From a phage, in the sequence record PZ452595.1: 64,000 nucleotides of DNA, one strand, 5' to 3'. Below, one piece after another: positions 22,593 to 39,394 of this stretch (position 1 is its first letter; each line of letters opens with the position of its first letter). The notes beneath the pieces were generated by a model. It searched no databases, had not been told where the DNA came from, and saw only the letters and a list, made by a program, of their open reading frames with translations. A program made the translations under genes and the position numbers.

Positions 22593-22617
22593 TATTTTTC
22601 CTTTCAATTCATGGGTT

Positions 22618-22641
22618 AGTAGATTAATTATACAATAAATA
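22618..22641 (-). promoter_or_regulatory. MotA-box middle promoter upstream of gene 56
   Basis: TGCTTTA - 11 nt - TATAAT. Confidence 0.5.
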
Positions 22642-22663
22642 TATAAAGCAATAAGGAGGACAT

Positions 22664-23889: not shown

Positions 23890-23891
23890 TT

Positions 23892-24056: not shown

Positions 24057-24057
24057 A

Positions 24058-24684
24058 TTAACCTCTATTCATAAAAGCATTAAAAATTTGGTCATCAATA
24101 GAAACATTTACTTTAGACTGTTTTTCAGATGGCAATTCATATCCACATATTACAATTTTATGATCAATATCAAAATACACAGAAGCAATATGATTAATGA
24201 TATTTTCAGTGAAGTCTAAATCAACATCAATGTCTTTTTGACCAAAGCCCAAAGGATAAATAATGCGAGTAATTCGATTATCTTTAACAAAGATTCCACC
24301 GACATACTCTGTGCTGCGTTTAAAGTCTACACGCCGACGAAATGAAAAATATTCAGGCTCTTTATGAGCTCGGCTCATAGGGCACAACGAATAACTAGAA
24401 TAAGAGATGTCAAATCCTACGCCTTCAATATGAACTAAATTGTCATGATTAAACCAATTATAATCGTATGCCAAGTCCATTAGATTGTCATATGTGAAAG
24501 GCACCGGATTAACATCATTGGTCACAAGCATATAATTAGCAACTGCTATAATTTCATTATTTTTAACGAATACAAACCGTGATTGATGCGAATGGCCTGG
24601 ACCTGCGTTTTCACGATTAATGATATAACACTGGGCACCTTTATATGTGTACGTGTCTTTACACTTGTGCATTTGATAAAGCAT
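24058..24684 (-). CDS. hypothetical protein (208 aa) at the T4 61.2 position; candidate AdfA (anti-DarT)
   Basis: Position between 61 and sp; assignment from memory of T4 61.2, not verified. Confidence 0.55.
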   Translation of the reverse strand: MLYQMHKCKDTYTYKGAQCYIINRENAGPGHSHQSRFVFVKNNEIIAVANYMLVTNDVNPVPFTYDNLMDLAYDYNWFNHDNLVHIEGVGFDISYSSYSLCPMSRAHKEPEYFSFRRRVDFKRSTEYVGGIFVKDNRITRIIYPLGFGQKDIDVDLDFTENIINHIASVYFDIDHKIVICGYELPSEKQSKVNVSIDDQIFNAFMNRG

Positions 24685-24977
24685 TATTCACCTACCACTT
24701 CAGCGATGATATTTTTATTATTAAAGTTTTTATCACAATACAGAACATAATTATACTGCATTACACCACCAGACTTAAGCTGTTTTTGCACTTCAGCTTT
24801 CATTTCAGGGCGATCGCGCTCAACGATATTCATAATATCTGCTTCAATTTGAGTTTCAACCTCAGTCTGATCTGCCGTCATAGACCATTCGCACAAATCT
24901 TTATCATAACCTGCCATAGCAGGCTGAGCAGCACAAGAAGCTAAAGCAAAAATTGTAGCAAAGATAAATTTTTTCAT
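24684..24977 (-). CDS. sp: Sp (spackle), periplasmic superinfection-exclusion protein
   Basis: 97 aa with signal peptide MKKFIFATIFALASCAAQPAMA as T4 Sp. Confidence 0.85.
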   Translation of the reverse strand: MKKFIFATIFALASCAAQPAMAGYDKDLCEWSMTADQTEVETQIEADIMNIVERDRPEMKAEVQKQLKSGGVMQYNYVLYCDKNFNNKNIIAEVVGE

Positions 24978-25037
24978 GATAATCTCCTCAGTAGTTTATG
25001 TTTATATAGTATCTCAATTTCCAACAAAAGTAAACAG

Positions 25038-25295
25038 TTATTTTAAAATTTCTGCGTAATCACATGTTACAAACTGTTTCTCTAGCTTAACGATCTTACG
25101 AAAATACCTTTTACACTGACGAATCTGTCGCTTCGTAGGACGTACAGCAAACTTAATAAATTCCACTCGACCAAATGGAGGACTTTCTTCTGCTGGAATA
25201 TCTAACACCAATTCCCACGTATCTGCAATAAGTGCTTTAAATTGTGTATTTTTCCTGACGTTATACGGAGTAGGTTTAAATAAAACAATATGCAT
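25038..25295 (-). CDS. small basic protein (~85 aa) at the T4 61.4 position; candidate TifA
   Basis: ATG with GAGGA SD ending 1 nt before dmd stop; Arg/Lys-rich; assignment by synteny only. Confidence 0.5.
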   Translation of the reverse strand: MHIVLFKPTPYNVRKNTQFKALIADTWELVLDIPAEESPPFGRVEFIKFAVRPTKRQIRQCKRYFRKIVKLEKQFVTCDYAEILK

Positions 25296-25296
25296 A

Positions 25297-25479
25297 TTAT
25301 CCTCGGCAATCCACTTCACATACTTTCTTGTCATCAATGAAAGCTTTAACTAATGCTTTATTAACTTCAGCATACTGAGTAGTAGCCCATTGAACGTCAT
25401 CTTTCATCATTGTGGTTTCTTTAGTAAACATGCTTTCATTCTTAAACCACCCCATAAAAACTACCTTTACCAATTCCAT
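25297..25479 (-). CDS. dmd: Dmd, antitoxin against RnlA/LsoA
   Basis: 60 aa as T4 Dmd; early promoter 25509-25538. Confidence 0.85.
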   Translation of the reverse strand: MELVKVVFMGWFKNESMFTKETTMMKDDVQWATTQYAEVNKALVKAFIDDKKVCEVDCRG

Positions 25480-25508
25480 AACAATCTCCTCATTTAACCA
25501 ACAAGACT

Positions 25509-25538
25509 ACTATACCATAGTCTCGTCAGCTTGTAAAC
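25509..25538 (-). promoter_or_regulatory. T4-type early promoter upstream of dmd
   Basis: GTTTACA - 17 nt - TATAGT. Confidence 0.6.
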
Positions 25539-26965
25539 TAAAATTTTAATTCATTCGCCAAAGCATCTAACTGAGCTCGAGTGGATTCATTTCTTTGATA
25601 GCGATTCTGCTCAGCCTGAATCTGTTGTGAACCTGCTACTTCGTTCACTTCAGTTGGAGTAGAATCTTGTTCAATTTCTACCCATTTCTGATTTCCCTTT
25701 TGAACACCCATCAAAAACTTATTCCACTTATTCTTATCACCATATCGTGATTTGATTTGCTTAATGAGTTGTTGTTCAGCAGCTGCTAGCTCCTCGGTTT
25801 CAATGACCGCAAGCATAAAATCAGCTGTCGCTGGAAGACCAGCAGATTCTGCGATATCACTCATGTTAACATCAGAAGAATCCCAAGCTTGTTTGCCGAC
25901 CTGCGCTGCAGTCCAAAGAACAGTTTCGGTTTCAACAGCCAAAGCACGCAATTCCTCTGCAATAGCTTTAACAGTTGTGTAACTATTTTCTGAATAAACT
26001 CTAATACGGCAAGATTTACAAATACCAAGATAGTCGACAATAATGATTGTTGGAACAAAATTCTTCTTGAGCTTCAATTCGTTTAAAAGTGATCGAAATG
26101 TATTAGCATCTGCTCCACCAGTAGGATACTGTTTAACGATTAAACGCCCGAGAGTAGATTTCTCGCGCCATTTTTCCATTTTTCCTTTATACTCAGCGTA
26201 AGAAATATGCCCATCATCAATATCATCAAGAGAAACATCAAGCATATTAGCATCAATACGCTTAGCACAGACTTCTTCTGCCATTTCCATGGAAATGTAA
26301 AGAACGTTATGACCAAGCTGCAAATAATCTGCTGCCAATGAACACAATCCTAATGACTTACCAACGTTAACGCCAGCCATTAAAACGTTCAGTGTTCCAG
26401 TCTCAGCTCCGCCTTTAGTAATTTTGTTTAGAATTCTGAGTTTAAATGGAACCTTACGAGCTTTATTCATATAAGATAGCCAACGTGCTTCGTAGTCATC
26501 CATCCAGTCATGACCAACGTAGCTATCAAATGAAATTGATAATGCTTGCCGCATAATGTCAGGAATAGCACCAACATCCGGCATTTTCTTATTTCGTTTT
26601 TCCGGAGGAAGCTCAGCATTAGTTTGAATTTCGATTATTTTAGATGTAGCATTAAACATCGCCCTTTGCTGAACATATTTTTCTGTTTCTTTTACTAACC
26701 AGCTGTGGTCTTCCGGAGAATCAGCCAGTTTTGAAATAAGTGTTTTTACACCAGAATATTCTGTTTCAGTAAATGAACTATTTTCTAATGCAACATTTAA
26801 CGCATTAATAGATGGAACGCTATGATACTCATTGACATGAGATTTAATTAATTTGAATGTATTTTTAGCTGGACCACTTTCAAAATATTCTGAATCCATA
26901 TATGGCCAAACTTTTGAAAAATAAGCTTGATCAAATATGAGATGAGAAAGAATAATTTCTACCAC
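25538..26965 (-). CDS. 41: gp41 replicative DNA helicase
   Basis: 475 aa as T4 gp41; Walker A GVNVGKS. Confidence 0.9.
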   Translation of the reverse strand: MVEIILSHLIFDQAYFSKVWPYMDSEYFESGPAKNTFKLIKSHVNEYHSVPSINALNVALENSSFTETEYSGVKTLISKLADSPEDHSWLVKETEKYVQQRAMFNATSKIIEIQTNAELPPEKRNKKMPDVGAIPDIMRQALSISFDSYVGHDWMDDYEARWLSYMNKARKVPFKLRILNKITKGGAETGTLNVLMAGVNVGKSLGLCSLAADYLQLGHNVLYISMEMAEEVCAKRIDANMLDVSLDDIDDGHISYAEYKGKMEKWREKSTLGRLIVKQYPTGGADANTFRSLLNELKLKKNFVPTIIIVDYLGICKSCRIRVYSENSYTTVKAIAEELRALAVETETVLWTAAQVGKQAWDSSDVNMSDIAESAGLPATADFMLAVIETEELAAAEQQLIKQIKSRYGDKNKWNKFLMGVQKGNQKWVEIEQDSTPTEVNEVAGSQQIQAEQNRYQRNESTRAQLDALANELKF

Positions 26966-26974
26966 ACTTACTCC

Positions 26975-27337
26975 TTAAAAGAATTTAAATTTTTTCTTTG
27001 ACCTTTTATTAAATGCATCTTGTAGTTGCATTGTAATACATTTTTCTACATGAGGAGCTAACTCAGCTTTTCTTTCTTGGTCAAGAACAGCAAAGTCCAT
27101 TACAACCTTTCCATCAACCCAATCCAGTTTAGTTACATACACTATATGTGTAGAACCATCTTCTAGTTTAATGACAATCTCCTGGATAACATTTTCCATA
27201 GCAGATTTAATTATCTTAAGAGACTCATTAAAAAGACGTTCTTTTCTTTCTTCTTCCCCCTCCGAAGAGGGGGATTCATCGATAATTTCTAGATCTAAAT
27301 CTAAATCATCTTTATTCATTAAATTCTTCCATATCAC
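26975..27337 (-). CDS. 40: gp40-like protein (120 aa)
   Basis: Position between uvsX and 41 as T4 gene 40; acidic N-terminus. Confidence 0.65.
   Translation of the reverse strand: MIWKNLMNKDDLDLDLEIIDESPSSEGEEERKERLFNESLKIIKSAMENVIQEIVIKLEDGSTHIVYVTKLDWVDGKVVMDFAVLDQERKAELAPHVEKCITMQLQDAFNKRSKKKFKFF
27256..27273 (-). terminator. UUCG-tetraloop hairpin inside gene 40 coding sequence, just 3' of uvsX
   Basis: ccccctccgaagaggggg; 7-bp GC stem within codons ESPSSEGEE. Confidence 0.45.
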
Positions 27338-28493
27338 TTAACTGATCTAGATCAGTTTCTAAATCAGCTGCTGATTTACTTTTACTTTCTGGAGATTTAA
27401 ATTTTTCAACCTTTGAGTTAATCAATTCATCAACTTCAGCTTCAACAATTTCATTACTATCAATAGCACCTAACTGATAAGCACGTTTAATAGCATCTCG
27501 GAATGGTTGATGCTTAAATAAAGGACCCCAGAATGTAGTGCAGTTGGTATCTTTTGCACGCCAAGATTTTTCTTCGCGAATCATCTCGCCGGTTTCTTCG
27601 TCAAGAAATTCACGAGCATACCAACCGTTCTTAGGTTTTACCACGAATCCTAATTCTAGAGCCATATCTAACAATCCAGAATAAGGATCGATACCACCGT
27701 CAAATTTAACATCAATAAAGAATTTACTTTTTTCTTTAACGGTACGAGATTTTTCTACATTTAGAACAAATTGATACCCCTGAAGATCAGAACCATCTTT
27801 AATCTGGCGTTTACCGATAATGAATACAGTATCAGCCGAATACATTACGCCTGTACCACCTGTCATCACGGTTTTACTAAACATTTCAATTGTTTCAATT
27901 GTATGGTTAACCGCAACACATGGAATATTTTTAATGCTAAAATAAGGAGTAACAATACGGAATAATGACTTCAGTGATTTAGCACGAGTCATATCTGCCA
28001 CAGATTTTTCATTCAAGGCATCTTCCGTTTCTTTCTTAGAAGCCATATTACCGATTGAGTCGATGAATACAATAACCTTTTCACCACGCTCAATAGCTTC
28101 AAGCTGATTCACCATATCAATTTTCAGCTGTTCAACTGACTGAATTGGCGTATGAATTACTCGTTCCGGGTCAACTCCCATGGAACGTAAATAAGCTGGA
28201 GTAATACCAAATTCGCTATCATAGAATAGACAAACCGCGTCAGGATATTTGTTCAAATATGCCGCAACCATAGTCAAAGACATATTTGATTTAAAGTGTT
28301 TAGAAGGCCCTGCGAAAATAGTTAAACCAGACTGCATACCACCATCAATCGCACCAGAAATAGCGATATTAAGCATTGGGATTTTTGTACGGATTACATC
28401 CTTTTCATTAAAGAATTTAGATGTAGTCAGTTCAGCAGTCATTTTAGAAGTGGAAGCTTTAATCAAACGGGATTTTAAATCTGCAATAGACAT
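27312..28493 (-). CDS. uvsX: UvsX recombinase (RecA-like)
   Basis: 393 aa; MSIADLKSRLIKASTSK N-terminus as T4 UvsX. Confidence 0.9.
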   Translation of the reverse strand: MSIADLKSRLIKASTSKMTAELTTSKFFNEKDVIRTKIPMLNIAISGAIDGGMQSGLTIFAGPSKHFKSNMSLTMVAAYLNKYPDAVCLFYDSEFGITPAYLRSMGVDPERVIHTPIQSVEQLKIDMVNQLEAIERGEKVIVFIDSIGNMASKKETEDALNEKSVADMTRAKSLKSLFRIVTPYFSIKNIPCVAVNHTIETIEMFSKTVMTGGTGVMYSADTVFIIGKRQIKDGSDLQGYQFVLNVEKSRTVKEKSKFFIDVKFDGGIDPYSGLLDMALELGFVVKPKNGWYAREFLDEETGEMIREEKSWRAKDTNCTTFWGPLFKHQPFRDAIKRAYQLGAIDSNEIVEAEVDELINSKVEKFKSPESKSKSAADLETDLDQLSDMEEFNE

Positions 28494-28546
28494 TCATTTT
28501 TTCCATAGGCATCATTATATTTTCCTCACTGGTTAAAGATAGAGTA

Positions 28547-28571
28547 ATTATAACACAATAAATTTAGGCAT
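28547..28571 (-). promoter_or_regulatory. promoter-like element upstream of uvsX (extended -10)
   Basis: TGTTATAAT with TGCCTAA MotA-box-like element ~11 nt upstream. Confidence 0.35.
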
Positions 28572-29413
28572 TAATCAACTGCTATTGGATGAATAGCATT
28601 AAACTTATGAAATGCTTCTGATTTTTCTTTACGCGAAACACACATGCGAAGAACCTTTAATGGCTCATCTTCTTCACCCAACGATTTTCGTTTTTCAATA
28701 TTAGAAGTTTTCCAACGAGCTTGTTCTGGAAACTCTCTATTGATTTGCTCAAGCGCTCTATTATGTTTAGAATTACTACGAATTGAACTGCACCCGCCAG
28801 GAGCTTGTGCTTTTCCAGATACAACCAGATATTTGAACAAGGCCAAATGCGGATAACCTTGATTAATTAAATTGAGAAATGCATACATATCTTCGCATAA
28901 ATCAATTTTTCCATACCCAATTTGTTCTGTCGTAAGTTTTCCGAGGTCATACCATGTATTCGTGAATCCATATGAATTTTCACGATAATTACCCCAAGAT
29001 GAAGTAATTTTAAAAATAGGTAGACGAGCATGGCCATGATAATACCCGCAATCCATGGCATCTTCAACGTATTGAATCAATTCATAGAACTGTTCACGAG
29101 TTAATTGATTAACTTTATCTACGCAGCGACGATCATCTCTCTTTCGCATTGAACTCATACGAATAGTAGTATCATCGTCAATCATCCAGATTCGTTGACC
29201 TGCATACATATCAGTAATAGCTTTACGAGTACCGGCAATTCCATTTACATCATCAGGAATAGTTATAATTTTAGCTCTAGACCCATAGGCATCACAATAA
29301 GCTTTTTCTTCGTGTTCACGCACTACAATATGCGGTTCATAATCAGTCGGAAACATATCAAGGGCAGAAACTGCCCCAACACGCTGATAACTTGGAATTA
29401 CGAATTGAATCAT
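28571..29413 (-). CDS. glycosyltransferase (DxD type), occupying the T4 beta-gt position
   Basis: ~280 aa from ATG (track start is GTG); IWMIDDDTTI DxD motif; ATGA coupling with gene 42. Confidence 0.6.
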   Translation of the reverse strand: MIQFVIPSYQRVGAVSALDMFPTDYEPHIVVREHEEKAYCDAYGSRAKIITIPDDVNGIAGTRKAITDMYAGQRIWMIDDDTTIRMSSMRKRDDRRCVDKVNQLTREQFYELIQYVEDAMDCGYYHGHARLPIFKITSSWGNYRENSYGFTNTWYDLGKLTTEQIGYGKIDLCEDMYAFLNLINQGYPHLALFKYLVVSGKAQAPGGCSSIRSNSKHNRALEQINREFPEQARWKTSNIEKRKSLGEEDEPLKVLRMCVSRKEKSEAFHKFNAIHPIAVD

Positions 29414-30150
29414 TTCCACTCACCTTTATAGTCTTTTTTCACAATATGAGTTTCGCCAGTATTCCACCAATGATCAACCAAGTAAAAATGACGAGAATAT
29501 ACATGAAGACTTCCAACATTCCATATAATAGAACCTGCTTTATACTGACGAGTTGAATCGCCTGCATTCAAATCAGATACTAATTTATCTAATACGTATT
29601 TTTGCCATGCATAATCATTACGGAATCCGAAGACTACGTCATTTGAGCGCATGTTAACAACTGCATTGATTTTCTTGTCACGAATCAGGTATTGTACTGT
29701 ATTCGTACACATGAAATCTGACATACCATCTTTATTGTAGTCAAATTGCATAGATGGACGAGTATAAATCATGATACCACGTCGAGAATCAGGATTTTGA
29801 CCAAGTTCAGCTAAACACATATCATACTGAGCATAATTATCTTCTGACCAAATAGCCCAACCATAATTCGAGTTAATTTCACCTTTAGAAGATGCTACTT
29901 GTTGCCAAATCTTCGGTGTTTCACCCGGAATATCTTTAACGAACAAGCTCTTAGATTTATACCATTCAAGTTCACGCTGGATGTATTCATCATTAAGAGC
30001 GCCAAAAATAAACGGTTCATCTGCTACAAATGATGCGCCAATAATTTCAATAGTTTTAACGCCAGTTTTATCAACTACGAAATCTTTTTCTTTTAATGCA
30101 AGCCCCAAATGAAGACGGATTTCTTCAACTGTCATAGAGTCACTAATCAT
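29410..30150 (-). CDS. 42: gp42 dCMP hydroxymethylase
   Basis: 246 aa as T4 gp42; thymidylate-synthase-like with catalytic Cys in FMCTNT. Confidence 0.85.
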   Translation of the reverse strand: MISDSMTVEEIRLHLGLALKEKDFVVDKTGVKTIEIIGASFVADEPFIFGALNDEYIQRELEWYKSKSLFVKDIPGETPKIWQQVASSKGEINSNYGWAIWSEDNYAQYDMCLAELGQNPDSRRGIMIYTRPSMQFDYNKDGMSDFMCTNTVQYLIRDKKINAVVNMRSNDVVFGFRNDYAWQKYVLDKLVSDLNAGDSTRQYKAGSIIWNVGSLHVYSRHFYLVDHWWNTGETHIVKKDYKGEWK

Positions 30151-30303
30151 TTAAACCTCAATTGATACATTCATATTTAACTTGTAACAGTAATAAACTC
30201 CAACCTAAAATAATAGTTGGAATCATAAGAGGAACCGTTACACTATAGTATATACTTATTATAACCATCAAGATTAAAAGCAACACTGCTATAATTTTGC
30301 TTT

Positions 30304-30555
30304 TCATTCCTTCTCTCTGATGATAATTACTTGATTTGGCTGTGCAGACTTTTTAGTTTCACCCGCAATTGACCAAATAAATGTAATAAACCAACCAATA
30401 ATTGACCAGTTAAACAGCAAAGATGTGAAAAAGATTCCTACTGTCGATTTTGACCCACGCATCAAGGCGATGAACCATGGAAGCATGTATATAATAATAG
30501 CCAACACGCCTGAAACTAAAACCATAAAAATTGAACCTGTTACTAAAGTTTCCAT
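30304..30555 (-). CDS. imm: Imm, superinfection immunity membrane protein
   Basis: 83 aa, two TM segments, as T4 Imm. Confidence 0.8.
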   Translation of the reverse strand: METLVTGSIFMVLVSGVLAIIIYMLPWFIALMRGSKSTVGIFFTSLLFNWSIIGWFITFIWSIAGETKKSAQPNQVIIIREKE

Positions 30556-30562
30556 CTTTTCC

Positions 30563-30943
30563 TCACTTAGTCAAATTTTTTACGCATGAATTATAAGAAT
30601 TCACTACATACTCCATCGGAGCATTTTTACCAGTACGCCATTGGTAATTATTAGCCCAATTAGCCCAAATTTCGGCGCAGTAGTTTTCAATTTTTTCTTC
30701 GCGTGTAATTACATCCGAATTACGATATGCTTGAGCAGATTCATCTGGGCGAATAGCTTCGTCAAAATTCGCCTGCATTTGTTCTACTGTCTGTTTTGGA
30801 GCTTCTTTATAACACTTGACATTAGGATTATAAAATTTGCTTGAACAGTTTACAATTTTTCCTACATCAGACTGATTTACTACCGGTCCTTGAGCTACAC
30901 AACCAGTAAGACCTAATGCAATAACCAAAATAGCGATTTTCAT
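30563..30943 (-). CDS. putative lipoprotein (126 aa)
   Basis: ORF track; signal peptide with lipobox LTGC. Confidence 0.6.
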   Translation of the reverse strand: MKIAILVIALGLTGCVAQGPVVNQSDVGKIVNCSSKFYNPNVKCYKEAPKQTVEQMQANFDEAIRPDESAQAYRNSDVITREEKIENYCAEIWANWANNYQWRTGKNAPMEYVVNSYNSCVKNLTK

Positions 30944-30955
30944 AATAATTTCCTC

Positions 30956-31207
30956 TTAAAACTTAACAAATAACTTTAAAGCATCTTCAGTTTTAATTCC
31001 TTTTCTTACACCCATAACAGAAATTGGCTGTGACTGAAATTTTCCTTTACCATTATAAATTTCTAATCCAGTCACCATTCCATTTTGTTCTATAATACCG
31101 TAAGTGTTACCTTCATTTTCAAATTCTTTAACTTTAAAGAGTTTATTAGCTTTTTCTGCATTAACAACTTTTAAATTTTGAATAAAATTAGTTTGAATAT
31201 TTTTCAT
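30956..31207 (-). CDS. hypothetical protein (83 aa)
   Basis: ORF track; conserved early promoter + SD cassette upstream. Confidence 0.55.
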   Translation of the reverse strand: MKNIQTNFIQNLKVVNAEKANKLFKVKEFENEGNTYGIIEQNGMVTGLEIYNGKGKFQSQPISVMGVRKGIKTEDALKLFVKF

Positions 31208-31235
31208 TTTGTGTTCCTCCGTAGTTGATAGTTGT

Positions 31236-31265
31236 ATAGTACCACAGAGGAACAGTCTTGTAAAC
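31236..31265 (-). promoter_or_regulatory. T4-type early promoter
   Basis: GTTTACA - 17 nt - TACTAT; 54-nt identity with cassette at 56150. Confidence 0.6.
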
Positions 31266-31352
31266 AGTTTTGTGAAAAAATTTTTAGGGAATTCTAAAGG
31301 TCCAGAATCATCTGTTTTTCATAAGTATAGATTTATATTACTTGTATGAAAA

Positions 31353-31370
31353 AGGGACCCGGAGGTCCCT
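31353..31370 (-). terminator. tetraloop hairpin after gene 43
   Basis: agggacccggaggtccct; loop UCCG on minus strand. Confidence 0.55.
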
Positions 31371-31382
31371 AGATTTATTCTA

Positions 31383-34079
31383 TCAGCCAAACAGGAAGTC
31401 TAACGAAGCTTTTTCTTCATAGTCCATACCAGCCGATTCACACATACCCGCAAGCGGTTTAACAAACGATTTTTGGAACAAAGTTGAGTAGTCAATCCAA
31501 GACAGTACATCAGAACGAATTTCTTTTGGAAGTTCTGTGCCCGACGGCCAAGCAATGCACTTGTCACCAAATGGATTTCCTTCACGCAATGGAAGAACCA
31601 TTACCTTATTTCCATCCAAAATTGGAGCTACACCCAGACCACTAACAGCTCGACGATAAGTTAGCACACCACGAATATGGAACGGGCATTTAAATCCTGG
31701 CCAACCTTTATCATCATATTTCGCTATATCGTTCGCAGTTTTTACTTCAGCAATAACTTTATAGTCAAGTTGACGATATTCTTTCTCGAAGTTCTTGTAA
31801 TATTCTTGGACAGACTCTTCGCCTTCCTGAAGAATACGACGAATACTTTCTTCGAGAGCTTCTTGCACTGCTTTTGGTGTTGAGCTCTGCTGAGTTTCCA
31901 TACCCATGATTTTTAGATGTGGTTCAGCAAATCGCTTATCTTCCATATCATAAACGTTCAGAGCATAACGCTTTTTCGCTTTCCAAAATCCACCGACGCC
32001 CTTTGAACCAAGCGGAGGGCAAGAAATAGCTTCACGGTCCATATGCATCAGATGCTCGCGGTTATTCATATAATCACATAACTCACGATATGCAACATCA
32101 ATCATAGGTTCCATCTTTTTCTTACCGAACTGATTCATGAATTCAACTAAATCGTTCTGCTCTTTGAATCGGTCAAGACCAACTTTTTCAATAACTTTAT
32201 CTACGCAAACATATACCGAATCAGTATCACCTGCCGCGATGAAATCTTCACCATTAGTTCCGCATACTTTATTCAGATATTCATTAATTTTACGAGCAAT
32301 CCACTGAATACCAACTTGGCCGAAAATTGTGATAGCAGTAGCATTTCGCAAATCATAGTAACGGAAATGAATATTACCAAGAGCACCATAAAGACTGTTA
32401 ATAAGAATTTTACGGTTCAGCTGATTTGTGTTAGCAAGTGTAGCTGCTTTTTCACATTCCTCAATCAGACTATTGAGAACAGATTCAGTATAATTCGATA
32501 GTTCATTTAAGAAATCATCACTGAACTTAACATATCGTTCAACTTCTGGTTTAGTTGAACAGGACCCTGCGCCTTTCATAATAATCTTTTTAATAGCTTC
32601 GGCATTCATTTCTTCAGCGAACATTTTCTTTTTCCAATCTTTACGCTGGAAAAATACTTTAGCGATTTCCTTTGGAATGATACCTTCTTGATGCTTATCA
32701 TACATCCATCCATTCGGAGAACAAGAATATTCATCACTTGGTTTAGGAGCTGTTCCTGCGATATATTCATGAATTGGATGAACTTTAAACTGTCCACGAA
32801 TAGTCTCAGGACTAATGTTAACCTGACGAATAATGCTCGGATACAGAGACGTCAAGTCAAAACTCATAATATATCGACGAGCAATTGGTTTAGGTTCAAA
32901 CACAAATGCACCCGGAAAACTCTGTTTAACGTGCGAACCTTGTTGAGGAATAACCTTATGTTCACCTTTCAATGAGTTAAAAATAATAGCATCCCAAGTT
33001 TTAATAGGACTCATTACACCAGAAAAAGGCATTTTAGCGTAATAAGACATACTTAAAACTAGATCGATAAACCCGCGAATTTTATCAATTGCTTGAACTG
33101 ATTCTACGTCAATGATGTTATAACTAATGTATCGTTGATGATTAGTCTCACGAAGTTTATTAATAGGACCGTCGTATGGTAATTTACCTTTTTTGGTTTC
33201 ATGTTGAGCAACTGATTCCAAAGAGAATGACGGCAAATTAGTAAAAGCGAATTTCTTGTACAAATCTAAATAATCAAGAATAGATACGCCATCAATAGAA
33301 TAAATTTCTTTGCTACCGTACATATTTTGAATTAGTTTAGATTTTACCCGACCGATTGGAGAGAAACGTTTCATACTGCGTTCACCTAGAATCATTTTAA
33401 CGCGATTCATAATATATGGAACGTCAAACCCCTCAATATTCCAACCAGTAAAAATAGCAGGTCGTTTCTGTTCCCAGAGATTGATATATTCCATGAGCAT
33501 ATCACGCTCATTATCGAATGGCATATAAATTACTCGGTCAAGAATTTCTTGAGGAACTTCATCACCACCTTCACAGTCAAGCTTAGCAGCTAACTTTGCA
33601 TCCCATTTTGATACTGAACCGTACATTGAATTCAACAAATCAAAGACATAAAAACGGTCATCAATTGAATCGTAATGAGTGATAGCATCAATTTCATATT
33701 CTGCTTTCATTGGGTCAGGAAATTTATCACCAGTAACCTCAATGTCACAGTTAGCTACACGAACAAATTTTCGGTCATAAACAATTTCTGAACCATATGT
33801 ATCACTGATATAAGCGAGTTTAAAATCGTTCATACCGAGAGCTTCGAGACCGATGTCTTCCATTCGCTTCATCCAATCTCGAGCATCTTTCATTGATGGA
33901 AATTTTTGAGGAGCACAGTTTTTACCATAGATGTCTTTGTATTTTGACTCTTCCTTACAATGCCTAAACATAGTCGGAAGATATTCTACTTCACGGGTAC
34001 GTTCCTTTCCATTTTCATCAATATAACGTTCAACAATGTTATTTCCGACTGTTTCAATAGAGATATAAAATTCTTTCAT
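31383..34079 (-). CDS. 43: gp43 DNA polymerase (family B)
   Basis: 898 aa as T4 gp43; exonuclease and polymerase motifs (YGDTDS). Confidence 0.95.
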   Translation of the reverse strand: MKEFYISIETVGNNIVERYIDENGKERTREVEYLPTMFRHCKEESKYKDIYGKNCAPQKFPSMKDARDWMKRMEDIGLEALGMNDFKLAYISDTYGSEIVYDRKFVRVANCDIEVTGDKFPDPMKAEYEIDAITHYDSIDDRFYVFDLLNSMYGSVSKWDAKLAAKLDCEGGDEVPQEILDRVIYMPFDNERDMLMEYINLWEQKRPAIFTGWNIEGFDVPYIMNRVKMILGERSMKRFSPIGRVKSKLIQNMYGSKEIYSIDGVSILDYLDLYKKFAFTNLPSFSLESVAQHETKKGKLPYDGPINKLRETNHQRYISYNIIDVESVQAIDKIRGFIDLVLSMSYYAKMPFSGVMSPIKTWDAIIFNSLKGEHKVIPQQGSHVKQSFPGAFVFEPKPIARRYIMSFDLTSLYPSIIRQVNISPETIRGQFKVHPIHEYIAGTAPKPSDEYSCSPNGWMYDKHQEGIIPKEIAKVFFQRKDWKKKMFAEEMNAEAIKKIIMKGAGSCSTKPEVERYVKFSDDFLNELSNYTESVLNSLIEECEKAATLANTNQLNRKILINSLYGALGNIHFRYYDLRNATAITIFGQVGIQWIARKINEYLNKVCGTNGEDFIAAGDTDSVYVCVDKVIEKVGLDRFKEQNDLVEFMNQFGKKKMEPMIDVAYRELCDYMNNREHLMHMDREAISCPPLGSKGVGGFWKAKKRYALNVYDMEDKRFAEPHLKIMGMETQQSSTPKAVQEALEESIRRILQEGEESVQEYYKNFEKEYRQLDYKVIAEVKTANDIAKYDDKGWPGFKCPFHIRGVLTYRRAVSGLGVAPILDGNKVMVLPLREGNPFGDKCIAWPSGTELPKEIRSDVLSWIDYSTLFQKSFVKPLAGMCESAGMDYEEKASLDFLFG

Positions 34080-34096
34080 AGATATTCCTTAGTTTA

Positions 34097-34116
34097 TAGC
34101 CCGAGTTATTAGGCTC
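34097..34116 (-). promoter_or_regulatory. gene 43 translational operator hairpin (autogenous repression by gp43)
   Basis: Minus-strand RNA GAGCCUAAUAACUCGGGCU just 5' of gene 43 SD; loop AAUAACUC is the wild-type T4 operator loop as I recall. Confidence 0.65.
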
Positions 34117-34137
34117 TTGATATATTATACTCCAAAT

Positions 34138-34155
34138 AAGGGGCCGAAGCCCCTT
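34138..34155 (-). terminator. UUCG-tetraloop hairpin between regA operon and gene 43
   Basis: aaggggccgaagcccctt. Confidence 0.55.
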
Positions 34156-34157
34156 GC

Positions 34158-34379
34158 TTAAATTAGTACTATTTGTCGGTGAAAAATTGTCATTCCATCT
34201 GCATTAATTGACTTAACGACTGCGGTAAAGTGTTTTTGTTCTGGATGAATTAATTTTTGAAATTCTACCTGAAATTTTAGTTGAAGGTTTTCTGGTAAAT
34301 CAAAAAGTGTTTCTGTTGCAGAAAGATTATATTTTTCTTTAAGAGACGCCATGTATTCTTGTGGAGTTATAGCAGTCAT
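34158..34379 (-). CDS. hypothetical protein (~73 aa) between regA and 43
   Basis: ATG 1 nt after regA stop; track ORF extends to 34421; followed by UUCG hairpin. Confidence 0.5.
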   Translation of the reverse strand: MTAITPQEYMASLKEKYNLSATETLFDLPENLQLKFQVEFQKLIHPEQKHFTAVVKSINADGMTIFHRQIVLI

Positions 34380-34380
34380 A

Positions 34381-34749
34381 TTAATTACCAATCGTATATT
34401 TAGGAACGAGTTTCCATTCATGCTTTTGTTTAAAAGAAATAACTCGGAAGTTATTAGTTAAATCTTTCATAAAAGTTCTTTGACCAGGAACGATTTCAAT
34501 CAGTCCCCAATCTTCTAACAACCATGCAATCGAATCACGACGAACTTCATCTTCTTCTGTCATTTCAACTTGGCGACCATCCATACGAAGCATTTCTTTA
34601 AAATGAACGATATAGTATAGTCCTTTTTTCTGAAGAATATGACAGGACTGATACAGAACTTTATCTTTATTATTAGCAATTCCCATACGAGTCAAAGTTT
34701 CTTTTACTTTCAGAAAATCTTCAGGTTTTTTAAGAGTAATTTCAATCAT
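34381..34749 (-). CDS. regA: RegA translational repressor
   Basis: 122 aa as T4 RegA. Confidence 0.85.
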   Translation of the reverse strand: MIEITLKKPEDFLKVKETLTRMGIANNKDKVLYQSCHILQKKGLYYIVHFKEMLRMDGRQVEMTEEDEVRRDSIAWLLEDWGLIEIVPGQRTFMKDLTNNFRVISFKQKHEWKLVPKYTIGN

Positions 34750-34750
34750 T

Positions 34751-35314
34751 TTACCATTCCAATGCTAGTTTTTTGAGTTGTTTCTGTTCTTTTACGTTCT
34801 TAGTCACTTCTTTCAAAAAATCATCCGTGACTAAACCTTTTAGTTCTTTTAATACTAAAGGAAGTTTTCCATTTTTAGTAAGAATTGATTTATAGTTAAT
34901 TGCATCATTTGTATTAACTTGATACCGTTTAGCAAGTAACTTAATAATCAATACTTCGGTGGAATCTTCAACCAGTTTTGCCCATTTACCGTATCTTTTA
35001 CCACGAGGAACAGCAGCCATTAGATAATTAAAATGAGCTTCATCACTTAATCCAGAACCGATTAAATTCATTGCATATACAGCTGGCATGCACTCCGGAA
35101 ATTGTGATAATGCATTTTCGACCATGAATTTTGAATAATCTTTTTGAGCAATAGAGCATTTAGTTTTATTATTGATAGCTCCAATTATTTCAAAAAATTC
35201 ATTTTCAGCTTTTTCTTTAAAAGAATCAGCAGCGGATTGGACAGCTGTCCAATCTTTTGAATACCAAGCAATCTGATGCTCGTTTAATTGAATATCATCT
35301 TCAAATAAGCTCAT
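34751..35314 (-). CDS. 62: gp62 clamp-loader subunit
   Basis: 187 aa as T4 gp62. Confidence 0.85.
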
Positions 35315-35315
35315 A

Positions 35316-36275
35316 TCACTTCCACTGCATTTCGCATGCTAATTGAATGAAAAGATAAGCTAAATGCAATTCAGTATTAGCTGCAATACCATGATACTGA
35401 TTATTTTCGCCGACAATTTCGTACATACGAATAATACTTTGTGGAGTTACACGTGAATAGATTTCTTCGGCAAGTTTACCAACGAACCACGAATAATCAG
35501 CCGCATATTTTGGTGCTAAAGCTCTGAGTTGTTTAACATCTTTATTTTTGAGAGACTCAAGAACATCATCAATAGCACCACAATCGTTAGTAACCAGTGA
35601 TAAAATACCAGCATCCAAAACACCTTTAGATGAATAACTATCGAGCTCGCCAATAGTTTTACGAAAATCAGGAAAATTCTTTTTAACCAAAGCTGCTACA
35701 ACTTTCATATCAGCTATAGCAATTCCTTCATGCTTGCAGATTTCAGTCAATCGACGAATCATCTGCTTCATCATTTCAATTTTATCTTCATCGGTCGGTT
35801 GACCGAATGTAATAACTCGGCAGCGTGACTGGAGAGGTTTAATAATACCATCAATATTGTTAGCAGTAATAATAATACTACAGTTTGAACTATAAGCTTC
35901 CATAAAGGAACGAAGATGTCGCTGAGACTCTGCTAACCCTGAGCGGTCAAATTCATCAATAACGATTACTTTTTGACGACCATCAAATGAAGCTGCACTA
36001 GCAAAATTAGTCAAAGGACCACGAACGAAATCAATTTTACAATCTGACCCATTCACAAACATCATATCAGCATTTACATCATGACACAATGCTTTTGCTA
36101 CAGTTGTTTTACCTGTTCCTGGAGAAGGAGAATGAAGAATAATATGTGGAATCTTACCTTTACTTGTAATAGATTTAAAGGTTTCTTTATCAAAGGCTGG
36201 AAGAATACATTCATCGATAGTAGATGGACGATATTTCTGTTCAAGAATGTGTTCTTTTTCATTTACGGTAATCAT
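35316..36275 (-). CDS. 44: gp44 clamp-loader ATPase subunit
   Basis: 319 aa from [17 protein letters not shown] (track start is TTG); Walker A SPGTGKTT. Confidence 0.85.
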
Positions 36276-36307
36276 AATTTCCTCATTCAAGTTTTAGTGT
36301 AAATTAT

Positions 36308-36325
36308 AAAGGGCCGAAGCCCTTT
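36308..36325 (-). terminator. UUCG-tetraloop hairpin after gene 45
   Basis: aaagggccgaagcccttt. Confidence 0.55.
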
Positions 36326-36326
36326 A

Positions 36327-37013
36327 TTAAAAATCGTGGGTAGAATCAGCTTCAAGAGCTACTACATAATTCGCGTGTTCACCTTCAAATTTAGCAGCAC
36401 CTTGTTTACCTTTTGCCCAGAGCAGAAGTTTATAATTTCCTGGTTGCATTTTCATATTTGCCATATTGATAATGAAATTAAATGTATTTTCACCATCATA
36501 ATCACCAAGAGTCAAAGAATATTTAACACGGGTCAGAGCAGAATCTTCTACTTTATTAAAACCGTTAATTACGATTTTACCTTCTTTTACTGTGATAGCA
36601 ATTGTATCAATCTGCAGACCACGAGATACACGCAACAGTTGTTGAAGGTCTTCAGCTTTAATTTCAGTAACAACAGATGCTACCGGGAATGGAATTGGTT
36701 TATTAGGAGCAACTACTGTACTCGGATCGGCTGCTGGCCAAAAAATTGTTGAGCGGGCATCAGCAATTTTAATATTTCCATCTTCTGACTGGGAAATTTC
36801 TGCATCATCATTAACTAGAGACAGAATACCGAGAAAACCGTTCAAATCGTAAATTGCTACATCAAAATCAATAACGTCAGAAATATTTGCTTCCGCATAA
36901 GTTGTGCCATTAACTGCGCGAGTCATAATAAATTGACCGGATTTAAGCATAATACCGGAGTTAATAGTAGCGAAATTTTTAAGCAGAGCAGTAGTATCTT
37001 TAGACAGTTTCAT
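36327..37013 (-). CDS. 45: gp45 sliding clamp
   Basis: 228 aa as T4 gp45; MotA-box promoter upstream. Confidence 0.9.
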   Translation of the reverse strand: MKLSKDTTALLKNFATINSGIMLKSGQFIMTRAVNGTTYAEANISDVIDFDVAIYDLNGFLGILSLVNDDAEISQSEDGNIKIADARSTIFWPAADPSTVVAPNKPIPFPVASVVTEIKAEDLQQLLRVSRGLQIDTIAITVKEGKIVINGFNKVEDSALTRVKYSLTLGDYDGENTFNFIINMANMKMQPGNYKLLLWAKGKQGAAKFEGEHANYVVALEADSTHDF

Positions 37014-37042
37014 GTAATTTCCTTCAATTCAAATGAGATTTA

Positions 37043-37067
37043 ATTTTATAACTAATTTAATAAAGCA
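37043..37067 (-). promoter_or_regulatory. MotA-box middle promoter upstream of gene 45
   Basis: TGCTTTA - 12 nt - TAAAAT. Confidence 0.45.
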
Positions 37068-37068
37068 A

Positions 37069-37458
37069 TTAACGATTAAAATCAGCCGCAATTGTTTCCG
37101 CAACAATTTGTGCAGCAACAATTAGACGTTCATCTGCATTGCCGCAATAATCATCTTCAAGGCGTTCACCACATGAAGTCATAATAAATTTAGCACCGGC
37201 GTTTAGGGATTCTGCAGTATGTTTGCGCATTAGTTCAATCCATTTATTACTTACTTCACGATCGATAGCTTCATAATACGCATGACGAGCAGGTGCAGAT
37301 TTAATTTTGTTCTGAATAACTTCCATTGCGTTATCAGAAAGAGACAAAACCCATGCTCGACGAATTTTATTTTGGTTTTGTGGATTTGATTCAGAACGCA
37401 CGTGTTTTGGCTGAATATCTTTTACATCAACAGTATAATTCACAGTAATTTTAGTCAT
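37069..37458 (-). CDS. rpbA: RpbA, RNA polymerase-binding protein
   Basis: 129 aa as T4 RpbA; position. Confidence 0.7.
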
Positions 37459-37467
37459 AATACACCT

Positions 37468-37656
37468 TTAGTCATAATAATCAGTAACAGTCCAAGCTTC
37501 ATTTCTATTGGACATTATTTTTGTATATTCTGCTTTAAATGCATTCCTAAGCATAGATTCAGTAACTATATGCTCTTCATTAGAAAAATTATTTCTCAGA
37601 ATATATCGTTTTATTTCAGGAATAGTTAATAGATGCTGTCCAGTTGAATATTCCAT
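37468..37656 (-). CDS. hypothetical protein (62 aa)
   Basis: ORF track; SD GGAGG; MotA-box promoter upstream. Confidence 0.5.
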   Translation of the reverse strand: MEYSTGQHLLTIPEIKRYILRNNFSNEEHIVTESMLRNAFKAEYTKIMSNRNEAWTVTDYYD

Positions 37657-37684
37657 GTTTTTCCTCCATAGAGATTATACTCTA

Positions 37685-37708
37685 ATAAATTAAAGCATAA
37701 TCTCTTAT
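37685..37708 (-). promoter_or_regulatory. MotA-box middle promoter upstream of 37468..37656/rpbA
   Basis: TGCTTTA - 11 nt - TATAAT. Confidence 0.5.
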
Positions 37709-37711
37709 AAA

Positions 37712-39394
37712 TTAAACCATTACAGTAAATCGACCAACTTTCTTCATTTGAAGATGCTGACCATATGCTTGTGGGTCATGGTCTCTATGCGAAATAACAA
37801 AAACATTAGTATTTTTTAAACTATCTAAAATAGTTGAAATAGCTTTTACACCTTCAACATCGGTCGCTGAATCAAAAACTTCGTCAAGAATTAACGTGTT
37901 TATTTTAACACCTGAAACTTTTTCAGCAATATCACGCCAAGTAAATAAAAGAGCAATATCAATTCGTGCTTTTTCACCTTGACTGAATGAAGCATAACTA
38001 AAATCTTCACGACCACGGGATTTAATTGTCTCATTAAATTCTTCATCTAATGTAAACACATAATCCGCTTCCATTATTTTAAGATAATGGTTAATCTGCT
38101 TATTAAATAATGGAATGTACTTTTTAATAATAGCACCTTTAATACCAGAATCTTTGAGCATATCAGTCAAAATTCCTCGGTGGTATTTTTCCATTACTAA
38201 ATTAGTTTTTGTCTTAACAATTTTATCAAGTTCTTCTTGAAGCAGTGCTATTTCATCAGCATGGTCAATAAACTCAGAAGATGCTTTTTCTATAGCCGCT
38301 TTAACTTTTTTAGCTTTATCTACCGTCGTGATTAGAGATTGCTTTTTATTGCGAATATCATTTGCCAACGACTGTTGGGTTTTAATATTATCTCGGTATT
38401 CATCAACAAGAACTTTTAAATTATCACGATGTGTTGAAAGCTGTTCAAACGAATGCGTACATTCAGAAACTTTATCTTTAATTTTAGAAACAACTTTATC
38501 ACCGGAACTCAATTGTGACAAACAGGTTGGACATAATCCACCTTCGTGATACATATTAATGACTTTATTATACGAGTCAATTTTTGATTTAATTAAAACT
38601 GCTTCTTGACCGATTTTATTAAATGCATCAGTCGGGTCTTCATCTAAAACAATATTAACTAATCTTTCGTTAGCTTCTTCTATTTCCGATTTTAGCGTTC
38701 TAGCTTCTTTTGCCAAATCATCATACATATTTTGCAGACGAGTAAGGTTGTCACCCGTTAATTTTTTCTGGCGTTCAACGTTATCATTATATATTTTAAT
38801 TTGTTGGATAATACTATATTTTTTAACATCAAGCACTTGGTTCTGCGAATTTAATTCACGTATTAGTGCTTTATTAAGCTTATCCATTTCAGCTAATGTT
38901 CCTACCTCGAGCAGGTCTTCCACAAGCTTTCTTCGCGCAGGGGTCGACAAACCCATGAAAGGGGTATACCCTGCTGTACCAAGGACAACAATCTGCTTGA
39001 AACTGGCATATGACATTCCGATAAGCTGTTCAAATTCTGCTTGGAAATCTTTACTGCTGGCAGATTCATTAAGACGTGTACCGTTAACGGTGATTTCAAA
39101 AACGTTTGGTTTTTGTCCTCTTTTGATATAGTATTTTTTCTCATCATATTCCATCCACAGTTCAACTAAAAGTTCTTTCTTATTTGTGCTGTTTATTAAT
39201 TGACCTTTCTTTACATCACGAAATGGCTTACCAAAAAGCCCAAATGTGATGGCTTCTAGCATAGTAGACTTACCACCGCCATTTCGGCCAGTAATAAGAG
39301 TTTTTTGAACCTTATCTAATTGAATGTCAATAGGATTTCCACCTACTGACATTATATTTTGATACCTAACTCGGTTTAGTTTAAAATTCTTCAC
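37712..39394 (-). CDS. 46: gp46 recombination nuclease subunit (Rad50/SbcC-like)
   Basis: 560 aa as T4 gp46; Walker A GRNGGGKST. Confidence 0.85.
   Translation of the reverse strand: MKNFKLNRVRYQNIMSVGGNPIDIQLDKVQKTLITGRNGGGKSTMLEAITFGLFGKPFRDVKKGQLINSTNKKELLVELWMEYDEKKYYIKRGQKPNVFEITVNGTRLNESASSKDFQAEFEQLIGMSYASFKQIVVLGTAGYTPFMGLSTPARRKLVEDLLEVGTLAEMDKLNKALIRELNSQNQVLDVKKYSIIQQIKIYNDNVERQKKLTGDNLTRLQNMYDDLAKEARTLKSEIEEANERLVNIVLDEDPTDAFNKIGQEAVLIKSKIDSYNKVINMYHEGGLCPTCLSQLSSGDKVVSKIKDKVSECTHSFEQLSTHRDNLKVLVDEYRDNIKTQQSLANDIRNKKQSLITTVDKAKKVKAAIEKASSEFIDHADEIALLQEELDKIVKTKTNLVMEKYHRGILTDMLKDSGIKGAIIKKYIPLFNKQINHYLKIMEADYVFTLDEEFNETIKSRGREDFSYASFSQGEKARIDIALLFTWRDIAEKVSGVKINTLILDEVFDSATDVEGVKAISTILDSLKNTNVFVISHRDHDPQAYGQHLQMKKVGRFTVMV

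Follow-up and report, generated by a model that had tools for sequence, protein, structure and literature searches.

We analyzed a 64,000-nucleotide stretch of phage DNA (sequence record PZ452595.1; this whole stretch is called the window), in which a 54-nt string, GTTCCTCCGTAGTTGATAGTTGTATAGTACCACAGAGGAACAGTCTTGTAAACA, occurs exactly twice, on the plus strand at 31213-31266 and 56147-56200, where dinucleotide shuffles expect 0.00 copies. The window matches several hundred Tequatrovirus genomes at 95-99% (~96-98% for T2, RB27, UFV13, and T4) and is colinear with T4 162551..168903 plus 1..60717, through a gene run comprising arn.3, rIIB/rIIA, 39, dda, modA/B, 41, 42, 43, 45, 46/47, 55, nrdD, the nrdC cluster, and tk.2; judged by these matches, it is the early region of a T-even phage (Tequatrovirus). 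All of its long open reading frames (ORFs) lie on the minus strand. Copy 1 of the string belongs to the early-promoter cassette of an 83-amino-acid (83-aa) ORF between gene 43 and imm.1, and copy 2 to the cassette of nrdC.8. The features at these two places are as follows (SD, Shine-Dalgarno sequence; -35 and -10, promoter elements; +1, transcription start).

31383-34079: gene 43.
31346-31369, minus strand: intrinsic terminator after gene 43, GGGACCTCCGGGTCCC plus a T run, ~90 nt upstream of the cassette; annotated in phage fPS-65.
31267-31290, minus strand: A/T-rich UP-element-like tract AAAAATTTTTTCACAAAAC, common to several cassettes.
31205-31266, minus strand: early-promoter cassette of the 83-aa ORF, copy 1 of the 54-nt repeat.
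31265-31259, 31241-31236, minus strand: copy-1 -35 GTTTACA, then TGG plus -10 TACTAT; predicted +1 near 31229.
31220-31216, 31207-31205, minus strand: copy-1 SD GGAGG and ATG.
31241-31254, minus strand: copy-1 hairpin 5' arm, sense TGTTCCTCTGTGGT, located in the -35/-10 spacer plus TGG, 5' of the predicted start.
31212-31225, minus strand: copy-1 hairpin 3' arm, sense ACTACGGAGGAACA, which includes the SD.
30956-31207, minus strand: 83-aa ORF, phrog_18567, function unknown.
56139-56200, minus strand: nrdC.8 cassette, copy 2 of the 54-nt repeat.
56199-56193, 56175-56170, 56154-56150, 56141-56139, minus strand: nrdC.8 cassette -35, -10, SD, and ATG.
56175-56189 and 56145-56159, minus strand: nrdC.8 hairpin arms.

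An earlier note on this DNA had reported the 54-nt pair as identical; the identity is exact, while the positions it gave, from 31209 and 56150, need corrections of +4 and -3. It had also described a 32-nt cassette at 8962-8993 and 53189-53220, and this match is again exact (0.00 expected in shuffled sequence). A repeat search of the window, the kind of self-comparison that the note had proposed as a check, added a third exact repeat of 31 nt, TTTTCATTTTATTCTCCAAATCCGTATCAGT, at positions 4631 and 57568. The search further returned a 10-copy family (starts 1072, 4362, 4650, 12629, 24971, 31201, 56135, 57574, 60776, and 61576), to which every one of the close variants listed in the note belongs (1091-1136, 4376-4426, 4661-4714, 57590-57638, and 61601-61640), as well as longer families of 75-87 nt in which similarity continues 5' of the -35 into the A/T tract. 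All cassette copies share one orientation. The genes behind them are indeed unrelated: PHROG places their products in different families of unknown function, and no product has a Pfam match.

Read on the minus strand, every copy consists of GTTTAC(A/T), 17 nt, TGG-TAnnnT, a leader, a GGAG-type SD, and an ATG. The reading of this arrangement as early promoter, leader, and ribosome site, already proposed in the note, is borne out by T4 orthologues and by the record of phage fPS-65, where the same sites are annotated as predicted early promoters. In the cassettes of interest, the promoter runs GTTTACA-17-TGGTACTAT, and the start region, CTATCAAC, is conserved; RB69 and JS98 promoters share CTATCAA at this place, and an A/T-rich UP-like tract, AAAAATTTTTCACAAAAC, lies 5' of the -35 in 5-6 cassettes. 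When the window was scanned with a T4-specific promoter pattern, 19-22 minus-strand sites fitted a -35 of GTTTAC(A/T), a spacer of ~17 bp, and a -10 of TAnnnT, usually with TGn. A generic sigma-70 consensus was discarded as non-discriminating (96 sites vs. 88.6 expected in 20 kb of A/T-rich DNA). The cassettes sit in sense orientation 5' of early genes, at places orthologous to T4 promoter positions, and near-identical T4 promoters are found at the orthologous positions of motA, motB.2, modB, dmd, nrdC.8, and others. T4 early promoters are known to combine UP, -35, TGn, and -10 elements with additional consensus regions (Hinton 2010, PMC2988021). GTTTAC at -36 to -31 is the T4 early signature and is kept, along with an A-rich -40 to -44, across T4-like phages. 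One T4 early promoter, P8.1, has been dissected by mutation; the T4 promoter at 8218, before motB.2, is taken to be P8.1, the two being equated by map position and not by a sequence match. The repeats are T4-type early promoter/leader/ribosome-binding units, i.e., an element that is already known.

The leaders add a further layer of constraint. GGAG, the most frequent SD among early genes, is also the site cut by RegB (PMC1702504; PMC3014915), whose cleavage turns early mRNAs off, and the T4 optimum for RegB with S1 is the 11-mer GGAGAAUAAAA (Durand 2006, PMC1702504; Uzan & Miller 2010, PMC3014915). The corresponding pattern, GGAGRAYARAA in an early intergenic region, which should be single-stranded, is present in the leaders of the window that we call B-type: their SD-to-ATG stretch (4635-4650, 12618-12633, and 57572-57587) matches the 11-mer at 11/11 positions, and their RNA is predicted to be unstructured when it starts at the predicted +1. 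The leader of motA, whose RNA is a RegB substrate, matches at 10/11, and the A-type leader, GGAGGAACAGA, at only ~8/11.

The note had also held that the repeats are longer than promoter function needs. For most of their length this does not stand, because ~5 signals with known function are stacked in them; it does stand for the spacer, which has no base-specific role for RNA polymerase. One could therefore suppose that the cassettes are alike purely through a shared long consensus and have no special part in recombination. In favor of this, every segment but the spacer has a described function and the cassettes occupy orthologous T4 positions. However, the spacer AGACYGTTCYTCYGTGG is identical or nearly so in three cassettes although spacers are not read base by base, and the spacers elsewhere are unrelated to it. 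These identical spacers make the three cassettes that share them true paralogues. Cassette similarity is mostly due to stacked functional constraints, with common descent or copying needed only to account for the identical spacers.

We then compared the gene content between cassettes across related phages, the check by which the note had suggested that its idea of module shuffling be judged. Gain, loss, and replacement bounded by cassettes were found at three slots, which differ among relatives by whole small ORFs, with junctions in the cassette and with chimeric cassettes, in line with that idea. At the gene 43/imm.1 slot, three states occur. In the first, seen in the window, T2, and 36 other records, an A-type cassette precedes the 83-aa ORF, which is confined to these 38 phage records and is absent from T4. 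In the second (fPS-65 and OES_C-2), a B-type cassette precedes an unrelated 78-aa ORF. In the third (T4), a B-type leader is fused straight to imm.1, apparently the product of a deletion between two copies of ATGAAAAT. All states share the upstream A/T tract and the -35, and the break falls inside the cassette; the ribosome site of imm.1 is the same in the window and fPS-65, and in T4 the B-type leader stands in its place. A homologue of the 83-aa ORF (54% identical) lies at another locus, rI.-1/mobD.3, in the Dhakavirus IME08, behind an early promoter of its own.

The denB/ndd.6 slot carries no insert in the window or T4 and 0, 1, or 2 extra ORFs across phages: in most Tequatroviruses, the direct repeat AATRAAATGAAA bounds an 87-aa ORF, and slur02 has two ORFs. 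In AR1, the slot holds a chimeric cassette, in which an ndd.6-type -35 and spacer are joined at TGGTACTAT to an ndd.4-type leader. At the nrdC.11/nrdC.10 slot, phage G2540 has two extra ORFs flanked by two cassettes, and the nrdC.10 cassette of the window equals the left part of the first of these joined to the right part of the second, with a crossover at CTATCAA. TadeuszReichstein has a different ORF here and two other cassettes, one of them RB69-type. The cassette-bounded ORFs encode 49-87 aa, and the four that were scanned against PHROGs and Pfam are without known function.

Two further observations concern movement between loci and genera. In TadeuszReichstein (~1730-1790), an RB69-type early promoter, GATAGGACTAtgtTATAGTAGTCCTATC, stands before nrdC.10 in a Tequatrovirus, which suggests that promoter-ORF modules cross genus boundaries. 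In RB69 (19011-19750), the imm.1-imm module lies between sp and 61.4, and in T4 and the window it follows gene 43; at either locus it is found behind its own early promoter.

Such chimeras are difficult to reconcile with mere convergence on a consensus. The AR1 cassette, the cassette-flanked insert of G2540 with a deletion product equal to the window cassette, and the alternative ORFs behind one promoter with junctions within that promoter all count against it, and we consider it improbable, even though few pairwise indels touch cassettes. Since the cassettes are multicopy and flank variable ORFs, and since one ORF family occurs at two loci, they might instead be parts or ends of an autonomous mobile element, whether transposon-like, similar to a miniature inverted-repeat transposable element, or driven by a homing endonuclease. 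The cassette-bounded ORFs (49-87 aa) come with no transposase or endonuclease, and neither target-site duplications nor terminal inverted repeats nor a recombinase were seen; moreover, the copies keep the single orientation that promoters require, and the homing-endonuclease insertions of the region lie elsewhere. Lacking recombinase, terminal repeats, and target duplications, this explanation was dropped as hardly credible.

Together, these comparisons make it very probable that the repeats are T-even early promoter/leader/translation-start units, which resemble each other mostly through stacked constraints, are in some cases paralogous, and also serve as joints for the exchange of accessory ORFs. 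Each unit of ~100 nt stacks the UP-like tract, the -35, a 17-bp spacer, the extended -10, the start region, the SD/RegB site, and ATG-AAA, with promoters presumably dependent on sigma-70. Copies with identical spacers would have spread, or been homogenized, by recombination, and, as T4-type recombination needs only short homology, cassettes could act as joints for ORF insertion, deletion, or replacement. The cassette-bounded polymorphisms are read directly from the genomes compared, as are the repeats, the promoter anatomy, and the T4 orthology; from them we infer the direction and the mechanism of each exchange event.

Several points weigh against giving the cassettes too large a role. The three polymorphic slots were chosen because they bear cassettes and yield no unbiased rate. 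In pairwise comparison, indels touching a cassette number 2/19 vs. T4, 2/5 vs. fPS-65, and 2/8 vs. OES_C-2, with cassettes making up ~4% of the span, and one of the T4 cassette-touching indels is a microhomology deletion inside an ORF. The other indels comprise homing-endonuclease genes, the nrdD intron, the gene 60/mobA segment, and ORF indels at ordinary junctions. Between the window phage and T4, the cassettes have stably kept their orthologous places, so that exchange is occasional, not rampant. Finally, transcription starts were placed by rule, ~7 nt after the -10, and promoter activity in this phage is, like these starts, predicted. Two candidate readings were rejected along the way: that most indels vs. 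T4 are cassette-bounded, which the indel counts contradict, and that the motB/cef indel is cassette-mediated, which proved to be an ORF-internal microhomology deletion in T4.

Small ORFs that are absent from T4 and have no promoter cassette were also noted (34158-34421, 43809-44078, 11144-11515, 15557-15817, and 60225-60678, minus strand). Lying at ordinary gene junctions, they are, as far as their placement indicates, a second, cassette-independent route of ORF gain and loss.

In addition to the linear signals, the 54-nt unit contains a hairpin. Its spacer, CTGTTCCTCTGTGGT, is complementary to its leader, ACTACGGAGGAACAG, over 15 bp, with the -10 and the start site in the loop. When the sense strand was folded from -35 to ATG, strong structure was predicted in 10/19 window promoters (z-score, z <= -3.7). 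Predicted folding energies for the read-through RNAs of nrdC.8, the 83-aa ORF, motB.2, modB, and dmd lie between -19.5 and -26 kcal/mol (z -3.6 to -5.1). Three of these RNAs, those of nrdC.8, the 83-aa ORF, and motB.2, were also folded from the predicted +1 and have no structure there (-0.3 to -2.3 kcal/mol, z ~0). Thus, the cassette of the 83-aa ORF drops from -20.5 kcal/mol (z -5.1) in read-through RNA to -0.3 (z +0.5) from +1, and the nrdC.8 cassette from -26 kcal/mol (z -4.8) to -2.3 (z 0.0). With its 5' arm located 5' of the predicted start site, the hairpin can form only in RNA begun further upstream. Two classes can be distinguished: in the first (nrdC.8, the 83-aa ORF, ndd.4, motB.2, and modB; z -4.2 to -5.1), the SD, alone or together with the AUG, makes up the 3' arm; in the second (dmd, mobD.3-like, motB, and the ORF before cef), the arms simply flank the -10.

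Early promoters of RB69 (Mosigvirus) and JS98 (Dhakavirus) are built alike but from other sequences, for example with the arm pairs TTCTCCTCTGGTT/AACCAGAGGAGAA, TTCTCCTCTAGTTG/CAACTAGAGGAGAA, TTCCTCCAAG/CTTGGAGGAA, and TTCTCCTCATG/CATGAGGAGAA and, in RB69, a recurrent bracket GATAGGACTA/TAGTCCTATC. Across the three genera, structure depends on sequence upstream of +1 in 30/50 promoters, counts that paralogous copies make not fully independent. This rate drops to 23% when the spacer is shuffled (p = 3e-8) and to 29.5% when it is swapped in from another promoter (p = 8e-6; binomial). Annotated phage records were used for comparison, as IMG/VR gave few T-even contigs (25 cassette-pattern stretches and 5 Dmd loci). 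Median spacer/leader duplex energies differ only weakly between native and chimeric combinations, and the difference lies in the tail at <= -12 kcal/mol, which holds 22-32% of native vs. 6-7.5% of chimeric duplexes. At motB.2, an SD-masking hairpin is present in four genera in three sequence solutions; within Tequatrovirus, the RB7 hairpin has two pair-preserving changes, and where the stems of T4, the window, and RB7 differ, G-U or A-U pairing is retained. We note beside this that MotB.2 (13831-14343, minus strand) exists in two allelic types in Tequatrovirus, with ~74 records >=90% identical to the window protein and ~400 only 60-80%, and that the promoter hairpin is conserved in front of both.

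Inverted repeats centered on the -10 might act as DNA, either as cruciforms that attract recombination or endonuclease VII or as operators of a repressor of early shut-off. The shut-off mechanism of early promoters is unknown in the literature, and a DNA-binding protein at PeSL stems, the stem-loops of RB49/phi1 early promoters, has been speculated on by Arbiol et al. (PMC2839356). The arm sequences, however, vary by promoter and offer no common operator. Furthermore, when stem mismatches were scored equally, the sense strand showed 16 G.T vs. 1 A.C (12 vs. 1 without paralogues), at a chance G.T share of ~55% as estimated from base composition; this excess, like the stem differences that keep G-U/A-U pairs, argues for pairing in the sense RNA and not in DNA, and makes a DNA-level role quite improbable. 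Taken together, the shuffle and swap test, the G.T bias, and the motB.2 orthologues indicate that the pairing is maintained by selection.

We next consider what the hairpin may do. In ~half of the cassettes, the spacer would form the 5' half of the hairpin and the leader or ribosome site the 3' half, and the resulting mask could act against ribosomes, RegB, or both. In a T4-wide scan of SD accessibility in read-through context, promoter-proximal genes had a median of 0.36 vs. 0.49 for others (p = 0.037), and accessibility fell below 0.35 in 10/21 of them vs. 26/112 other genes; as a sanity check, gene 49 came out as the least accessible start. RegB is easily inhibited by RNA structure, which means that the hairpins would protect GGAG sites inside long transcripts as well. 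A hairpin is present at 20/44 promoters without an upstream intrinsic terminator vs. 1/16 with one (Fisher p = 0.005), an association that is weaker by a second definition (25/37 vs. 5/13, p = 0.10) and is therefore given here as a trend only. A hairpin where no terminator precedes the promoter fits an insulating role, and we infer that it may insulate its gene from read-through transcripts, at the level of translation or of RegB.

The same association could mean that the promoter-overlapping stem-loops are themselves terminators or attenuators of upstream transcription and not translational masks. Terminator activity has been measured for one PeSL stem-loop and such a role proposed (Arbiol et al., PMC2839356), and in the window the spacer hairpin of nrdC.4, with its T-rich tail, scores as terminator-like. 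Most T-even stems, though, are followed by A-rich or mixed sequence and no U run (e.g., ...GGAACAG-AAAAUGAAU), and in five window cassettes the 3' arm is the SD itself; with the terminator association weakening under the second definition, we regard attenuation as rather unlikely. Our proposal that in T-even phages of at least four genera many early-promoter spacers encode an anti-SD or anti-leader, such that the gene would be masked in read-through RNA and open in its own transcript, is itself a tentative one, which we rate as possible and somewhat short of an even chance.

The remaining cassettes and promoters of the window, all on the minus strand except where no strand is given, are listed below.

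1063-1137: motA early-promoter cassette, leader ...ACGGAGATTAGAAAATG, terminator upstream.
4366-4427: ndd.4-like cassette, paralogue of the 54-nt unit, with spacer AGACTGTTCTTCCGTGG, leader ...CTACGGAGGAACAGAAAATG, and the same SD-sequestering hairpin.
4635-4715: ndd.6 cassette, B-type leader ...TGATACGGATTTGGAGAATAAAATG, spacer-internal hairpin TACCAC/GTGGTA; polymorphic slot.
8934-8992: rIIA.1 cassette, copy 1 of the 32-nt repeat, GTTTACT-TTACCACAAGGATGTGG-TATAAT, spacer-internal hairpin.
12618-12693: cassette of the ORF between motB and cef, -35 ATATACA, with a 13-bp inverted repeat TCAGTAGTTGATT/...ATCAACTACTGA around the -10.
13207-13284: motB promoter, GGGACC...GGTCCC around the -10.
14341-14401: motB.2 promoter (T4 orthologue at 8218), with a 17-bp hairpin in which spacer TCCTCGGTCAGTTGTGGT pairs with leader and SD ACCATAGCTACTGAGGA.
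19543-19602: modB promoter, whose -10 region and immediately following bases, ATGATAGCTTC, pair with SD and ATG, GAGGCTATCAT.
25477-25539: dmd promoter, directly after the gene 41 stop codon, 15-bp hairpin around the -10.
53152-53219: nrdC.4 cassette, copy 2 of the 32-nt repeat, hairpin TACCACAaggaTGTGGTA plus T-rich tail, flagged terminator-like.
57572-57639: nrdC.10 cassette, B-type leader, SD GGAGAATAAAA a perfect RegB/S1 site; polymorphic slot.
57667-57686 (no strand given): terminator upstream of the nrdC.10 cassette.
60780-60841: mobD.3-like promoter, 14-15-bp hairpin around the -10, SD immediately 3' of the stem.
61580-61641: mobD.5-like cassette, GTTTACT...TGGTACTATACAACTATCGG..., terminator upstream at 61656-61673.

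The ndd.6 leader carries the 10-nt CAACTACTGA twice in tandem (4657-4676, minus strand); T4, PhiZZ23, slur02, and AR1 do not have this duplication, which resembles the product of minor slippage within the cassette. A second family of repeated regulatory elements consists of intrinsic terminators, GGGC-UUCG-GCCC plus a U run, near-identical at >=7 sites (about 5353, 5590, 10863, 34140, 36310, 41020, and 44658; sense = minus); UUCG-tetraloop structures in T4 intergenic regions are mentioned in the literature. Gene 39 is a single 606-aa ORF (8991-10811, minus strand), and the T4 gene 60 bypass/60.1/mobA segment (~1.1 kb) is absent, as in T2-type phages.

The cassettes also affect annotation, and here the note's warning of spurious N-terminal extensions proved correct: ORF 55614..56201 begins at a TTG in the -35, and its frame runs through ...TIQLSTTEEQKM to the true ATG at 56141, from which nrdC.8 encodes 175 aa, like T4 NrdC.8. 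Maximal ORFs extended through promoters were seen at 55614-56201, 4255-4464, 12351-12632, 13831-14382, 52153-53190, and 61394-61627 (minus strand), beginning at TTG, GTG, or ATG in the -35, spacer, or -10; their true starts are the SD-preceded ATGs at 56141, 4368, 12620, 14343, 53154, and 61582, respectively. In the T4 record AF158101 (~166750-166764), the start ATG of ndd.4 lies inside the promoter leader (CTATGGAGG; the window has CTACGGAGG), and the true start is more likely the one behind the GGAGG SD, 15 nt downstream and in frame. The practical value of the cassettes is thus in annotation, since gene callers run several ORFs through promoters and the T4 reference ndd.4 is apparently affected.

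If the masking proposal is true, its meaning is broader. The mask would be a general, promoter-embedded means of confining host-takeover genes (modB, motB.2, and the ndd/nrdC ORFans) to the immediate-early burst, an alternative to an upstream intrinsic terminator, and would explain why spacer and ribosome site travel jointly in cassette exchange. The principle known for e, soc, 49, and I-TevI, a small number of late genes, would then hold for early genes too. Should the hairpin block translation or RegB cleavage of read-through RNA, this would give a simple rule separating T4 immediate-early from later expression, and would bear on an acknowledged gap, as T4 early shut-off is incompletely understood. 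For phage engineers, it would offer a compact insulator design. Full-text literature searches returned no earlier account of SD masking at early promoters; key older papers lay beyond their reach, and priority is uncertain.

Compared with T4 early promoters (Pe), the window cassettes are the same in -35, spacer, TGn/-10, UP-like tract, start consensus, and positions (PMC2988021). Nothing essential differs, save that a few slots hold other ORFs in the window phage. Liebig and Rueger reportedly dealt with the T4 early promoters in 1989. As to RegB/S1 sites, the B-type leader and motA are close matches and the A-type leader a partial one, with cleavage predicted only.

The use of such cassettes as recombination joints is already known: proposals date back to 1994, and the demonstration came from a sister group in 2010 (PMC2839356). 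The PeSLs of RB49/phi1 are alike in joining A/T tract, promoter, stem-loop, SD, and ATG within ~100 bp, the stem-loop overlapping or lying between -35 and -10; they are likewise ORFan-associated, and recombination between them inserts and deletes ORFs and creates chimeras, with crossovers between the -10 and the ATG (PMC2839356). In contrast, PeSL promoters follow a sigma-70-like consensus and have GGGG...CCCC stems that were shown to terminate transcription (PMC2839356), whereas the window promoters are T4-type. Unlike PeSLs, the window stems are A/T-richer and promoter-specific, many include the SD, and most have no U run; neither the sigma-70 consensus nor the poly-G/poly-C stems of the RB49 PeSLs were found in the window cassettes. 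T-even elements are called analogues, not homologues, of PeSLs by Arbiol et al. (2010, PMC2839356), whose paper does not mention translation. According to the account given there, Repoila et al. (1994) described ~70-bp early-promoter/inverted-repeat homologies that flank T-even IP genes and proposed them for shuffling (PMC2839356). These two IP loci lie outside the window, and the same architecture is seen here at 43/imm.1, denB/ndd.6, and nrdC.11/nrdC.10. Repoila and colleagues are said to have found, in 1994, that variable small ORFs are flanked on either side by a T4 early promoter overlapped by an inverted repeat.

Lambdoid morons and integron cassettes are similar in that small accessory genes carry their own expression signals (discussed in PMC2839356). 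Morons, however, are not thought to move by homology of regulatory sequences, and integrons rely on an integrase and attC sites, none of which are present here. The closest parallel to the mask is offered by T4 e, soc, 49, and I-TevI: in these genes, pairing closes the ribosome site in long early RNA, and transcripts started at a late promoter within the structure leave it open. In both settings, the SD/AUG would be paired in read-through RNA, and the transcript of the internal promoter would be without the 5' arm and hence translatable. A promoter-embedded mask would be a plausible step beyond a principle that T4 is known to use. The known cases concern late (or middle) promoters that delay expression, whereas here the promoter would be an early one whose own spacer provides the 5' arm, an arrangement found again at a large share of early promoters in several genera.

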